NCBI GenBank assembly: GCA_041556195.1
Contig: JBFFIY010000003.1
Coordinates: forward strand, 7,504 to 71,503
From: Enterobacterales bacterium
GTDB lineage: Bacteria; Pseudomonadota; Gammaproteobacteria; Enterobacterales; GCA-002770795
DNA: 64,000 bases
Reading direction: 5' to 3'
Position numbers and translations under genes: made by a program. This document shows, piece after piece, positions 3,700-7,719 of the stretch (its first letter is position 1; each line of letters starts with the position of its first letter). The notes beneath the pieces were generated by a model. That model saw only the letters and a program-made list of their open reading frames with translations, was not told the DNA's origin and made no database searches.

Positions 3700-5142
3700 A
3701 TGTCAATTATTATTCGTGGTGGAACCATAGTTACCTCTGAGCAAACCTGGAAAGCAGATATCTATTGTGATGACGGCAAAATTAAAGCCATAGGCGAAGA
3801 TCTGGATGTACCATCAACAACAGAAGTGCTGGATGCCTCAGGGCAACTTATTATGCCTGGAGGAATCGATCCCCATACCCACATGCAACTACCATTTATG
3901 GGTACAGTTGCATCGGAAGACTTCTTTACAGGCACTGCAGCGGGACTCGCAGGCGGCACCACCACCATTATTGATTTTGTGATCCCGAATCCTCAACAGC
4001 CGCTAATGGATGCCTATAAAATGTGGCGCGAATGGTCACAAAAAGCCTGCTCTAATTATTCATTTCATGTCGCAGTTACCTGGTGGGATGAAAGCGTTCA
4101 TAAAGATATGGGTACTTTGGTACGAGAAGAAGGCGTTAACAGCTTCAAACATTTCATGGCCTACAAAAATGCCATTATGGCAGACGATGAAGTACTCTAT
4201 AACAGCTTCTCACGCGCATTAGATCTAGGCGCAATCGTAACAGCACATGCAGAAAATGGTGAGCTGGTTTATCAGTTACAACGCAAACTTCTTGAAATGG
4301 GAATGACCGGGCCAGAAGCTCATCCACTATCTCGCCCACCAGCCGCTGAAGGCGAAGCCGCCAACCGTGCCATTCGCATGGCAGAGGTCATTGGCTTACC
4401 GCTTTATTTAGTGCATGTATCAACCAAAGATGCATTAGATGAAATTATTCGTGCTCGAAATAGCGGACAAAGAGTCTATGGCGAAGTACTTGCCGGTCAT
4501 TTGCTGATCGATGATAGCGTCTATAGAAACCCCGATTTTGAATTTGCCGCAGCCCATGTCATGTCACCCCCTTTCCGCTCAGCAGAACATCAGGATGCAC
4601 TATGGAAGGGGTTACAATCAGGCAACCTACAAACAACCGCCACCGATCACTGTTGCTTCTGTGCCGATCAAAAAGCCGCTGGAAAAGATGACTTTACCCT
4701 GATCCCAAATGGCACCGCCGGTGTAGAAGATCGCATGACAATGTTATGGACTCATGGCGTCAATACAGGCCGTTTGACACCACAAGAGTTTGTCGCTGTG
4801 ACCTCTACCAATACAGCCAGGATTTTTAATATCCATCCACGCAAGGGAGCAATTCAAGTGGGGGCAGATGCAGATCTGGTGCTCTGGGATCCAGAAGCAA
4901 CTAAGGTAATATCTAAAAACACTCATCATCAAAATATAGACTTCAATATTTTTGAAGGAAGAGAGGTAAAAGGTTTGCCTTCACATACTATAAGTAATGG
5001 CGAATTGTTATATGTTGATGGGGAGCTAAGAGCAAAACCAGGCACTGGTACTTATGTCAAACGTCCTGCATTTCATGTGGCTTTTGATGCTTTGAAGAAA
5101 GTGGCGGAGCGTAATCGGCCTGTGAAGGTTGATCGGGGTTAA
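3700..5142 (+). CDS. dihydropyrimidinase / D-hydantoinase
   Basis: 480 aa cyclic amidohydrolase. Metal-binding GGIDPHTHM (HxH), FKHFMAYK (carbamylated Lys context), later HVS and TDHC ligand contexts. RBS aagaggaag lies upstream. Confidence 0.85.
5027..5142 (+). repeat. direct repeat copy 1 (functional 3' end of the dihydropyrimidinase gene)
   Basis: By manual alignment, 116 bp recur at 7604..7719 with 7 nucleotide differences. Homology ends exactly at the stop codon. Confidence 0.9.
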
Positions 5143-5438
5143 GAAGAAGTTCATCACGAAACACGAAATTAATCTGTGGTGGAGAACTTGCGTCTGATGA
5201 AAAAACGTGGAATCTTTAACTTCAAATTGAATACAAAATGAATGGAAAACGGTTACTAGGTATGGTTAATATTCAAAAAAAACAAGAAACCAAAGCCAAC
5301 TCCAAAAAACACTTCTCTCACTTAGCAAACAAAAACCATAAATAAGTATCAGGTGGCTGTGTCCAGCGGCACAGTTCAACAGAGATTTACATTGAATAGT
5401 TAGGCTTTTATCTTGAGTGAGAATAGTAGGAAACTTAA

Positions 5439-6167
5439 ATGGAAAATAATGAATTAGATTACAAAAGAAATAATTACACTCATTTGTCTGAAGCGATTGA
5501 TGATCTTGAAAAGAATATCAGACGTTACCAAAGTGTGGGTAATATTGGATTAATTATATCTGGCGCGTTATTCGTTGTGTTGGGTTTTTTTGTGTATCAT
5601 TTGTTTGAAGGAACCTTATCTAGCGTAAGAACGTTAGGCCTCGAAGATACAGTAATCTCCTATACAATTGACCCTAAAAAGGGAGCGAAAAAAATAGTTA
5701 TAAAAGGCGATGAAGCGCCAATAGAACAAAAGTTAGAAAGAGAAAACTCAGAGTCGTTTGTGATCTTGGATGGAGAGGCTAGAGTAACCAAAACAGTATC
5801 AACTGATAACACCAGTATGGTTGTGTTATCTATAGTGGTTTATATATTAAGAACATCTCTGCTTGGTTCATTCGTTCTTTTGTCGCTAACGTACACTGTT
5901 AAGTTTACTACATCATCGTTTGACCAAGCGGTTCGTTTTACTAAGCGAAAACATGCATCACAGTTTCTTTTGGAGATGTTTAAGCATTATAACCCAGAGA
6001 TTTCAAATGTGCCAAAGATTATGGATGCATTTGGTGAGTGGAATGTTAATGTTGAATCAGCTTACACCGATGTAAAAGCAAACGAAAAAGCATTCAAAAC
6101 ATTCTTTGAACATCTAGGTAAATTAGATGAGACTTCAACAAATAAAGCCAAGGACAAACAAGCCTAA
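5439..6167 (+). CDS. hypothetical protein with two hydrophobic segments (integron-cassette-like ORF)
   Basis: 242-aa ORF with hydrophobic stretches GLIISGALFVVLGFFVY and MVVLSIVVYILRTSLLGSFVLLSL. I recognise no family. It starts 34 bp after a GTTAGGC core, and its stop codon lies inside the GCCTAAC core of an attC-like site. Confidence 0.55.
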   Translation: MENNELDYKRNNYTHLSEAIDDLEKNIRRYQSVGNIGLIISGALFVVLGFFVYHLFEGTLSSVRTLGLEDTVISYTIDPKKGAKKIVIKGDEAPIEQKLERENSESFVILDGEARVTKTVSTDNTSMVVLSIVVYILRTSLLGSFVLLSLTYTVKFTTSSFDQAVRFTKRKHASQFLLEMFKHYNPEISNVPKIMDAFGEWNVNVESAYTDVKANEKAFKTFFEHLGKLDETSTNKAKDKQA

Positions 6168-6214
6168 CCAGCGCGGTCAAGCGGACAGCCCACCGCTTAC
6201 CGCGAACGTTAGAG
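6162..6214 (+). other. integron attC-like recombination site
   Basis: Sequence GCCTAAC-cagcgcggtcaagcgg-acagccca-ccgcttaccgcgaac-GTTAGAG. It has an RYYYAAC core, a GTTRRRY inverse core, and imperfect inverted repeats with one unpaired base, closely resembling classical short attC sites. Confidence 0.75.
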
Positions 6215-6524
6215 CAAAGCACAATTATGGCAGAATGGGAAAATCCAAAAACATTTGAATCCGGCTATGGTCCAGGTATCGAAATTACAAGACTAGATCT
6301 TTATCGTCTTTAGGAATTAACTAGAATTAACTTGGACAGCCATAACTTAAAACAGCAAAATAAGTTCATCAAAAATATATTTTCCCAGGGTGCAAAACAT
6401 TGATTTTTGAAGAAAACATTTCTGGAATGAAGAAATTATCAGAGAGGTTTGAAAAAACTCAAAATACAGGCATAGCTAAGCTCGGAACCCCGATTTTTGT
6501 TCTTGTTTATGAAGATGTTGGGCT

Positions 6525-7502
6525 TTATGCTGGAGATTCAAACGGCGAAGCTTTGCCTTGACCATTCATCCACTTGCGACCAACTTTTAGAGCGATAGCT
6601 TTTATCATTTCCTTTGAACCAGCTAACCTGAAATTACGTTTTCCGAAATGATTGACTTGTTTTATCCAGGTGTCGGGCTCTATTTGCAATCGACTTAAAA
6701 TAGGTTTGAGATTAATGGGAATTGAACCGGATTTATTCTCTCTAATTGCTCTGCCTGACCAGTCAATGAGTTCAAGGTAATCGTTTAAATAAAACGGTAT
6801 GCCCTGACTGTTACTATTATCGCCATCCATTACCAATAAATTATCGGCTTGATGAGGTTTCCCCAGATGCTGCTGTATCCTTTCTCGAACGGATGTATAC
6901 TCAGAGTTTTCAGGAGTCATAGCTATATTGGCCCTAATCGGATTTAAATCTACATAGGCCATGCAGGTCATAAGTGCTGCTTCATCAAGCAATGCTTGTG
7001 ATTTAAATCTTCCCTCCCAGAAACGTCCTGTACACTTATCTTCCTTATTGGCTAACCTGGCCACATGTTCATTCAAACAGCGCATAAACCAGCTTAAGTC
7101 TGATAAACGTTCTCTTCATTTTTCAGTTTGAGTATCCAGTGCCATCTTTTGAAAATCAGAAAGAGGGTTGCCCGATTGATACATCTGAATTAACAGTCCA
7201 CCAGAGTAGAGCTTTTGCCATCGCTCAATGACTTCAGCTTGTGACCAATGTTTAGACTCCTCTGGGGACAATCTGAGCACAAGATGATAATGGTTTGACA
7301 TGACTGCATAAGCGCAGATGTCAATAGCAAAAACAGAAGAAAGTAAATTGATTCTATCAACAATCCATTGTCTTCGATGCTCAAATGACTTGCCTGAAAA
7401 CTCACCTTTACCACATAGAAAAGCTCTACGGACACAGCGACCAATACAGTGATAATAGGGGGTATCTGAGACTGAAACGATATTTTGACGGGGTTGTGTC
7501 AT
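6525..7502 (-). pseudogene. IS200-like Y1 (HUH) transposase family gene interrupted by one in-frame TGA
   Basis: Track ORFs 7116..7502 and 6525..7085 are in the same frame, separated only by a TGA at 7116..7118. The N-terminal part has the HUH motif (SNHYHLVL). The C-terminal part has FWEGRFKSQALLDE and AYVDLNPIRA, typical of this transposase-like family. Confidence 0.8.
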
Positions 7503-7603
7503 GTTGTTTCCTCCTGAAACAATGGTTTTAACTTCCTTATACTTGATTAAATTAAACTAATTGAGTTAGATTGTCAAAAAAGAAATGGGTGTCCATTAAA
7601 TCG

Positions 7604-7719
7604 TAAGAGCAAAACCAGGCACTGGTACTTATGTCAAACGTCCTGCATTTCATGCCGCTTTTGATGCTTTGAAGAAAGTGGCGGAGAGGAATCGGCCAGT
7701 GAAGGTTGATCGGGGGTAG
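7604..7719 (+). pseudogene. displaced 3' fragment of a dihydropyrimidinase gene (direct repeat copy 2)
   Basis: Encodes ..[37 protein letters not shown] with no upstream coding sequence. It matches 5027..5142 except for mostly synonymous changes. Confidence 0.85.

Follow-up and report, generated by a model that had tools for sequence, protein, structure and literature searches.

Introduction

Direct repeats of the 3′ end of a gene, together with a substitute tail, are the hallmark of integrase-type elements, such as e14 and phage 21 in icd and ICESt1 in fda. Here we analyze a diverged 3′-end duplicate in a stretch of 64,000 nt (hereafter the window) from contig JBFFIY010000003.1 of an Enterobacterales bacterium (GCA_041556195.1), in which the tail of a dihydropyrimidinase gene is found on both sides of a block made up of a 258-bp spacer, an integron-type gene cassette, a short 113-nt stretch and a unit with a Y1 (HUH) transposase pseudogene. 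The second tail copy begins at the outer end of this unit, and we tentatively favor, with somewhat less than even confidence, the view that recombination at the end of the Y1 unit left the duplication behind as a scar.

Several described systems resemble parts of this arrangement. IS91 and ISCR elements move by one-ended rolling-circle transposition, in which a precise end is joined to the target and variable adjacent donor DNA is carried along. Elements of the IS200/IS605 type encode a TnpA of about 150 aa, have subterminal hairpins in direct orientation and no inverted repeats, and are present as near-identical copies. Among marine Alteromonadales and Chromatiales, Y1 transposases of subclass 2.3 are frequent, with several diverged copies per genome, and to our knowledge neither an activity nor ends nor a target are known for them. 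As a class, HUH Y1 enzymes cleave and rejoin single-stranded DNA; the members of subclass 2.3 are about 325 aa long, are found several times per genome, the copies sharing about 75% identity, and carry NHYH as the HuH motif, WE as the W motif and YVDLNP as the Y motif (Quentin et al. 2018, table 1; PMC6006769). Finally, the displacement of C-termini in rhs genes, type VI secretion system (T6SS) effectors and contact-dependent inhibition (CDI) systems has been attributed to homology-facilitated illegitimate recombination (Jackson et al. 2009; Kirchberger et al. 2017, PMC5361080).

Two Copies of the Dihydropyrimidinase Gene Tail

The gene at 3700-5142 was recognized as a dihydropyrimidinase by TIGR02033 (590 bits, for a cut-off of 393), and it also matches Amidohydro_1. 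A base-by-base comparison showed that its last bases, 5027-5142, recur at 7604-7719 as a 116-nt direct repeat with seven differences (at 5078, 5079, 5110, 5112, 5121, 5139 and 5142), and a repeat search returned the same pair as 5027-5141 and 7604-7718 (115 nt, 95%). Five codons are affected, four of them silently (CGT/AGG for Arg, CCT/CCA for Pro, GGT/GGG for Gly and TAA/TAG for the stop), the fifth being a Val/Ala exchange (GTG/GCC). The similarity sets in abruptly at TAAGAGC and runs through to the final base of the stop codon, and the sequences flanking the copies are unrelated on the left and on the right. The initial annotation, made by eye, had therefore described the duplicate, its seven differences in five codons and both of its sharp edges correctly. 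The first 22 nt of the tail occur exactly twice in the 64 kb and not at all in 100 shuffles; a third, decayed copy was looked for and none was found. The two copies lie 2,461 bp apart. Copy 2 is a stump: its frame lacks a start codon and does not open before 7600.

Divergence between the tails is strongly biased toward silent changes. In simulations, seven random substitutions kept the stop and caused at most one amino-acid change with a probability of 0.001-0.003. Relatives for comparison were sought in species-representative genomes, among 5.8 billion proteins and by a metagenome scan with tail peptides. The species-representative genomes gave a best protein identity of 89%, too distant at the DNA level, and the metagenome scan gave nothing; the protein search yielded one useful relative, P0002, encoded on a JGI metagenome contig (L081; loci used for comparison carry L numbers), whose protein is 97% and whose gene is 91% identical in nucleotides to those of the window. 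No relative closer than L081 was found in these collections. Both tail copies share eight derived states with respect to L081, from which copy 1 differs at 11 and copy 2 at 13 positions. When the differences are polarized by L081, four changes are private to copy 2 and all of them are silent, the probability of which is 0.003-0.008 for a stump drifting without selection.

The silent bias thus shows that both copies are alleles that evolved as coding sequence, and the eight common derived states indicate that the second allele came from a close relative. Comparison of the sequences therefore supports the initial proposal that both tails evolved as coding sequence in different lineages, these being two closely related ones. 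The companion proposal, that the segment from 5027 was imported and the resident tail displaced, holds as far as the presence of two alleles is concerned, but the comparison with the nearest relative that had been suggested for finding the native copy gave no decision, the counts being 11 against 13. Copies that are nearer to each other (seven differences) than to L081 (11 and 13) would also be expected from a local duplication followed by drift; given the silent-biased differences (P = 0.001-0.003) and a right boundary exactly at the stop codon, we regard this as the least credible of all the explanations considered here.

Over their first 51 nt the two copies show no difference, although L081 departs from them at four positions in this part; if differences were evenly spread, a block of this size free of them would be mildly unexpected (P ~0.017). 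Homology between L081 and the window stops 6 nt past the stop codon (window position 5148), where synteny also ends, and the DNA that follows in L081 (lptG/lptF) matches neither the window from 5143 onward nor that from 7720 onward. Both tail copies contain a perfect small hairpin, ACCAGTGCCTGGT (5037-5049 and 7614-7626), 10 nt from the junction site. This geometry of hairpin, about 10 nt and joint recalls the sites at which IS200/IS605 elements are cleaved at their right end; the fold itself falls short of significance (z ~-1).

The Y1 Unit and the Junction at Its End

The Y1 gene had been described as nonsense-interrupted, and we confirmed a single TGA within its 325 codons, in place of a TGG, all homologues having Trp at this position. 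Its translation contains SNHYHLVL, RFWEGRF and AYVDLNPIRA, which include the NHYH, WE and YVDLNP motifs. Its length, counted with the internal stop, falls among those of its homologues (318-339 aa), and GCA_054000015.1 encodes three paralogues, each of which shares 73-75% identity with the window protein (a range that does not refer to identity among the three). Based on motifs, length and the several paralogues, the gene matches TnpA_Y1 subclass 2.3. With 325 aa, inverted-repeat ends and paralogues 70-82% identical, it does not fit IS200/IS605. The protein scores below the cut-offs of NF047646 (REP-associated tyrosine transposase; 44.3 bits vs 80) and of PF01797 (Y1_Tnp; 17.8 bits vs 23), and judged by its sequence it appears to be a relative of the proteins in these models, not a member. 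An intact paralogue, 82% identical in aa, was found in the same sequencing run in another gene context (L083, Logan SRR29257296), and its protein could act in trans on the ends of the pseudogene. The amidohydrolase next to this paralogue was considered as the source of the tail and discarded as unrelated.

An inverted-repeat core, GACA[CG]CCA, brackets the Y1 gene (6334-6343 on the plus and 7594-7585 on the minus strand). The longer motif GGACASCCAT has exactly two exact copies in the 64 kb, both at the ends of the unit, and copies with one mismatch are not above chance. The same inverted motif flanks every paralogue for which enough flanking DNA is available (L085, L087, L088, L089, L094, L095 and L098). 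In this respect the unit resembles REPtrons and TIRtrons (Di Nocera et al. 2013, PMC3733652), in which the gene is also flanked by inverted repeats, but it differs from TIRtrons in having the core GACA[CG]CCA and an 8-16-nt leader specific to each paralogue instead of GGGGWSAS; neither GGGGWSAS nor GTAG-tagged REP hairpins were found at the unit. At the left end (LE), only a weak 5-bp hairpin is present. A metagenome scan for the unit leader added a single paralogue. Directly upstream of the Y1 start codon there is a conserved hairpin, GTTTCAGGAGGAAAC (7503-7525, minus strand), which is also found in L083 and L085-L089 and would sequester the ribosome-binding site, reminiscent of the translational control of IS200.

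Copy 2 of the tail starts 0-1 nt outside the outer end of the terminal inverted repeat, the junction reading, on the minus strand, ...GCTCTTA followed by CGATTTAATGGACACCCAT. The Y1 gene can therefore hardly be treated as mere content between the repeats, as had been done initially. Homology of the window to six paralogue loci ends at 7593/7594, 9-10 nt from the start of copy 2. Beyond the conserved core, each paralogue has its own leader of 8-16 nt, with short tandem units upstream of it. In L085-L088, all these units upstream of the gene start at one base, 8 nt outside (G/T)(A/G)GACA, and have variable ends. The equivalent base in the window is 7603, which indicates that the displaced tail was joined at the recurrent joint terminus of the family. 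The other end of the unit is built alike, with GAATTAACTA abutting GAATTAACTTGGACAGCCAT at 6314-6343.

Longer tandem duplications, anchored at one end immediately beyond the repeat core, were found in five paralogue loci: L092 (206 nt twice, 100% identical), L098 (134 nt twice, 99%), L095 (136 nt, 96%), L094 (60-66 nt) and L089 (44 nt twice). In the literature on subclass 2.3 and on TIRtrons we met no description of such end-anchored duplications.

An Analogous Arrangement in Pseudoalteromonas

The complete chromid of Pseudoalteromonas sp. HL-AS2 (L094) carries a unit homologous to that of the window (51% aa) flanked by a 109-nt direct repeat with 88% identity. The repeat copies (7697-7803 and 9187-9295) are intergenic and have no other occurrence in the plasmid collection; one starts 11 nt outside the repeat core, and 41 nt separate the other from the opposite end. 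HL-AS2 thus reproduces the order seen in the window: direct repeat, extra DNA, unit, and direct repeat abutting the repeat end. The sister strain HL-AS1 shares the ACT-domain gene found upstream (89% identical), behind which it has one repeat copy without the unit, and the divergence between the HL-AS2 repeats (12%) is comparable to that between the two strains. A true empty site for HL-AS2 was not found in the plasmid collection, which holds only the single copy of HL-AS1, with a different downstream region.

The presence of the same architecture in a finished genome makes an assembly artefact in the window less likely. The window itself seems to stem from a metagenome assembly, public contigs built for this organism with k=31 are interrupted at the 51-nt block (L084 starts at 7625), and both pairings of flanks and tails are valid paths through the assembly graph, so that the pairing of left flanks with tail variants rests on the original assembler, the opening 51 nt being identical. 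The chromosome might then consist of the gene, the copy-2 tail and the DNA from 7720 onward, with 5078..7603 present as a 2,577-bp circle or a tandem array; alternatively, two strains might have been merged. Nevertheless, the joint 7603/7604 must exist in real molecules, as the sequences before 7604 and before 5027 differ. Moreover, reads of 100-150 nt span 51 nt, and a circle of 2.6 kb without a replication gene is unlikely to persist. Together with the complete genome of HL-AS2, these points make an artefact or a mixture of states improbable.

The two loci also bear on the possibility that the Y1 unit and 1.2 kb of accompanying DNA were inserted just past the stop codon and gave rise to an in situ target duplication of about 110 nt, the live tail being later replaced by another allele. 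The similar lengths of the repeats (116 nt and 109 nt) and the strain-level divergence of those in HL-AS2 are compatible with such an event, but we know of no HUH or other transposase that makes target duplications of 100 nt, and the additional allelic replacement is needed because an unselected stump would rarely acquire only silent changes (P = 0.003-0.008). We therefore consider this explanation rather doubtful. Slightly better placed, though still unlikely, is a deletion adjacent to the unit. Deletions that start exactly at the end of an element are classical for insertion sequences, and if two full gene copies had once been present, for instance after integration via long homology, a deletion from the repeat end that left 116 nt of the second copy would account for why the joint lies at the repeat end, why the stump has an arbitrary left boundary and why the copies diverged in the manner of coding sequence. 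However, this requires two events and a transient duplicate operon 94% identical to the first, and large duplicated blocks are not suggested by HL-AS2, where the repeat is intergenic and short, nor by the single copy in HL-AS1.

Search for a Recombinase

Apart from ORF242 and the Y1 pseudogene, no open reading frame (ORF) occupies the DNA between 5143 and 7603. As the initial annotation had noted, no tyrosine or serine recombinase lies between the copies, and none was found in the 20 mid-sized window ORFs scanned or in the annotated ORFs of the locus. The scanned ORFs gave no Phage_integrase match either, whereas a complete integron would have an intI integrase and attI beside its array.

The insertion of an integrase-type element into the 3′ end of the gene, which the initial annotation had offered as one reading, thus finds no support, for no integrase was found between the copies or in the window ORFs scanned, and the right boundary coincides with the repeat end of a transposase. 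As with e14 and phage 21 in icd and ICESt1 in fda, diverged direct repeats of the 3′ end are present and a substitute tail keeps the gene intact, so that a decayed element of this type, or one mobilized in trans (e14/icd-like, or resembling a cis-mobilizable element, CIME), with its attachment site in the gene end, could be imagined. Unlike those elements, the block has neither integrase nor excisionase and only 2.5 kb of other cargo, a cassette and a Y1 unit, without element functions, and we consider an origin of this kind very improbable.

A Proposed Recombination Scar at the Unit End

If the duplication is a scar made at the end of the Y1 unit, the events may have run as follows. In a close relative, spacer, ORF242 cassette and subclass 2.3 unit would have lain, in this order, behind the dihydropyrimidinase gene. 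The HUH enzyme would have nicked the outer end of the inverted repeat (7603), and the freed 5′ end would have been joined to a 3′-OH inside the homologous gene tail of the present chromosome (7604). The trailing strand would run back through unit, cassette and spacer into the donor copy of the gene, where homologous recombination would reconnect it. The expected product begins with the gene body and an imported tail (copy 1), continues with 2.46 kb of DNA from the donor and closes with the resident tail (copy 2), and the duplicated stretch would correspond to the homology from the target nick to the point where homology ends, the stop codon. A nick in a sister copy of the element's own end would give truncated or tandem duplications of that end, and one in the homologous region of a related chromosome without the unit would give the structure of the window.

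Several observations led us to this reading: the allelic, coding-type divergence of the copies, the end of the repeat at the stop codon, the joint at the repeat end, the recurrent use of the same terminus in the duplications of paralogues, the analogue in HL-AS2 with its single-copy sister site, the failure to find an integrase, and the ability of this enzyme class to cut and rejoin single-stranded DNA. From them we infer that the enzyme made the joint, with the strand polarity given above, and that the block between the copies is the imported part. The one-sided homologous recombination considered in the initial annotation comes close to this, but the non-homologous joint sits at a transposase end.

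The proposed events follow one-ended rolling-circle transposition as known from IS91 and ISCR, combined with homology-facilitated recombination. The enzymes of IS91 and ISCR likewise belong to the HUH class, and here too one precise end is joined and a variable length of neighboring donor DNA is carried. They are, however, Y2 enzymes with ori and ter ends and a tetranucleotide target, whereas the unit of the window is of the Y1 class, has inverted-repeat ends, and its far end was apparently resolved by homologous recombination. Displacement of C-termini in rhs, T6SS effector and CDI genes is similar in that a new 3′ end and downstream DNA arrive via conserved 5′ homology and the old end remains as an orphan stump. 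Both the orphan 3′ stump and the homologous 5′ part are present in our case, but the tips are not functionally different: they differ by one Val/Ala exchange, nothing functional was swapped, and the gene encodes a metabolic enzyme. Furthermore, the non-homologous joint lies at a transposase repeat end and not at an arbitrary microhomology.

Some of our data weigh against a scar made by the Y1 enzyme. The coincidence at the junction was noticed only after the fact, and long flanking repeats were seen in 2 of the ~13 loci examined, so they are an occasional product, not the rule. In another locus, L087, a duplicated hemF tail near a Y1 paralogue is not beside a repeat end. The Y1 gene of the window is a pseudogene, though with a single stop and with the intact 82% paralogue in the same sample. 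The distances to L081 (11 vs 13 differences) do not fix the direction of import, and no donor-type or empty-site genome for the window itself, the latter suggested initially as a check, was found in the collections searched. Finally, the published survey of subclass 2.3 reports no REP-like structures beside the genes (Quentin et al. 2018, PMC6006769).

The hemF case shows features of its own. In L087 (GCA_054000015.1), the last 220 nt of the coproporphyrinogen oxidase gene recur 1,025 nt downstream (3211-3445 and 4236-4470, 81% identity), 1.4 kb from the Y1 paralogue, and the two copies bracket a parDE toxin-antitoxin pair. The second copy is decayed, with 18 silent and 16 replacement codon changes and an internal stop, and its left junction has no recognizable repeat end.

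A different route to the same product is a Campbell-type integration, in which a circle of tail, spacer, cassette and Y1 unit, with its junction formed at the repeat end, would enter by a single RecA crossover within the 116-bp homology, probably in the 51-nt block. This would account for the duplication and both of its sharp boundaries; the difference-free block (P ~0.017) is the longest identity available for a crossover, and IS200/IS605 Y1 enzymes make single-stranded circles (background in PMC6006769). On the other hand, a second cleavage at an arbitrary site of the donor gene would be required to close the circle, 116 bp with 6% divergence are a poor substrate for recombination, and the product is indistinguishable from that of the direct joining described above. 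We find this route unlikely, if somewhat less so than an adjacent deletion. The circle, the adjacent deletion and the in situ duplication all attribute the joint to the transposase end, whereas an integrase acting in trans, an integron integrase (see below) and a mis-join in the assembly do not.

DNA between and around the Tail Copies

The features of the locus are given in table 1. What had been called a cassette-like ORF proved to be a real integron-type cassette, with the hairpin architecture of a canonical attC and with boundaries that recur in another genome. The bottom strand of the attC (6160-6218) folds canonically (-16.7 kcal/mol, z -4.1). Only seven homologues of ORF242 were found among the 5.8 billion proteins, and the sole close one (70% aa) is encoded on a contig of GCA_024449835.1 (L091) that begins exactly with TTAGGC and has GCCTAAC directly past the stop. 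The same contig carries a further small ORF preceded by GTTAGAT and terminates in GTTAGTG, which gives it the look of a fragment from a cassette array that was broken at the repeats.

Table 1. Position of the features described at the dihydropyrimidinase locus of the window
Feature	Position	Strand	Remarks
Dihydropyrimidinase gene	3700..5142	+	480 aa; Pfam + NCBIfam
Tail copy 1	5027..5142	+	last 38 codons + TAA, in frame with the gene
AT-rich spacer	5143..5400	+	258 nt; its last base is the G of a GTTAGGC integron core site (5400-5406)
Integron-type gene cassette	5401..6210	+	starts TTAGGC; ORF242 + attC
ORF242	5439-6167	+	membrane protein without family
attC	6162-6216		55 nt; R'' GCCTAAC, paired L boxes with one bulged base, R' GTTAGAG
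Stretch behind attC	6211..6323	+	113 nt; begins TTAGAGCAAAGC, ends with truncated left inverted-repeat end GAATTAACTA (6314-6323)
TnpA_Y1 subclass 2.3 unit	6324..7603	-	TIRtron-like; promoter-like leader and putative Shine-Dalgarno-sequestering hairpin
Left inverted repeat of the unit	6324-6343	+	GAATTAACTTGGACAGCCAT
Right inverted repeat of the unit	7603-7585	-	CGATTTAATGGACACCCAT
Y1 (HUH) transposase pseudogene	6525..7502	-	325 codons; one in-frame TGA at 7116-7118
Tail copy 2	7604..7719	+	displaced 116-nt stump of the second allele; ends TAG; left side joined to the outer end of the Y1-unit inverted repeat
Low-GC variable stretch	7720..10013	+	behind copy 2
Toxin-antitoxin pair	8053-8572		DUF4258 / MqsA-like (YgiT zinc-finger)
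Second attC-like site	8567-~8641		after the toxin-antitoxin pair; less convincing fold, z -1.05
Pterin-4a-carbinolamine dehydratase gene	9229-9579
Palindromic 152-nt repeat	9585-9737

The two attC-like sites of table 1 have a common start, GCCTAACCAG(C/T)GCG, the one at 6162-6216 being canonical, and they look like a cluster of attC sites lacking an integrase (CALIN) beside the operon. The likeness consists of ORF242 with its canonical attC and TTAGGC start, and of the second attC-like site 2.35 kb away after a toxin-antitoxin pair. The difference is that here the cassette is cargo inside a bracketed block, with attC at neither boundary of the duplication. No attC-like fold or other hairpin was found in the spacer and at the left junction (5296-5410). 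The spacer was also considered as a copy of the 152-nt repeat described below and rejected, as only ~12 nt are similar, and a 20-mer at 5144-5163 that resembles the end of the antitoxin gene was judged a chance match.

Sequences at three boundaries of the locus are alike: GTTAGAGCAAAGC after attC (6210-6222), G/C-TAAGAGCAAAAC at the tail starts (7603-7615 and 5026-5038) and GTTAAGTGCAAAA at 7812-7824. This likeness exceeds the integron core consensus. It might point to recombination by an integron integrase at a secondary site, the tail start (C/G)TAAGAGCAAAAC agreeing with the post-attC core GTTAGAGCAAAGC in 11 of 13 positions. We estimate a likeness of this degree between two 12-mers at fixed positions at about 1e-4 by chance, real attC sites lie on both sides, and the 12-mer at issue behind the attC is TTAGAGCAAAGC, that at the tail start TAAGAGCAAAAC. 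Against such an event, neither an attC nor another hairpin was found at 7520-7612 (the fold beside 7603 has z +0.5), GTAAG misfits the known preferences for secondary sites, and the window ORFs scanned include no integrase; we regard it as highly improbable.

The dihydropyrimidinase gene closes a pyrimidine-degradation operon that contains, upstream, an aldehyde dehydrogenase, a beta-ureidopropionase-like CN hydrolase and a permease. Synteny with L081, with L001-L080 and with many marine bacteria covers the upstream side only and not the downstream one. GC content drops from ~45% to ~37% between 5143 and ~10000. A search of plasmid DNA with the locus gave no match, and an Rfam search gave nothing relevant.

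Two families of small repeats were observed in this region. The 152-nt repeat has three copies, 89% identical, at 9585-9737, 45165-45317 and 45333-45484, the last two forming a tandem pair near 45.2 kb. Its long inverted arms are bounded by GTAACTATTCAG...CTGAATAGTTAC, its fold is strong (z -5.9) and it contains a promoter-like TTCAAA-18-TATAAT; the family looks like a miniature inverted-repeat element. The second repeat, of 39 nt, has two copies (7779-7817 and 8958-8996) that are 90% identical, with the palindromic core CTATGGCAATTTGCCATAG. They lie ~235 nt upstream of the toxin gene and of the pterin dehydratase gene, respectively, and could be an operator or a small repeat.

Implications for Subclass 2.3 Units

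The window locus, its Pseudoalteromonas analogue and the end-anchored duplications of the paralogues give subclass 2.3 a concrete and testable terminus and type of product. We suggest, as a conjecture held with low confidence, that the units of this subclass might actively join DNA by way of a defined terminus immediately beyond their inverted repeats, and that they would transfer this end into homologous DNA, carry neighboring genes such as an integron cassette, and leave duplications of ~100 nt or tandem duplications of the end. This would amount to an undescribed, integrase-free insertion of cargo at gene ends, in which the second joint is made by homologous recombination. The 3′ end of a gene, when found duplicated in diverged form, is usually taken to mark the action of an integrase, yet such duplicates can arise without one, and, if the proposed mechanism holds, integron cassettes and other small cargo would have a way to move between related strains without an integron integrase.

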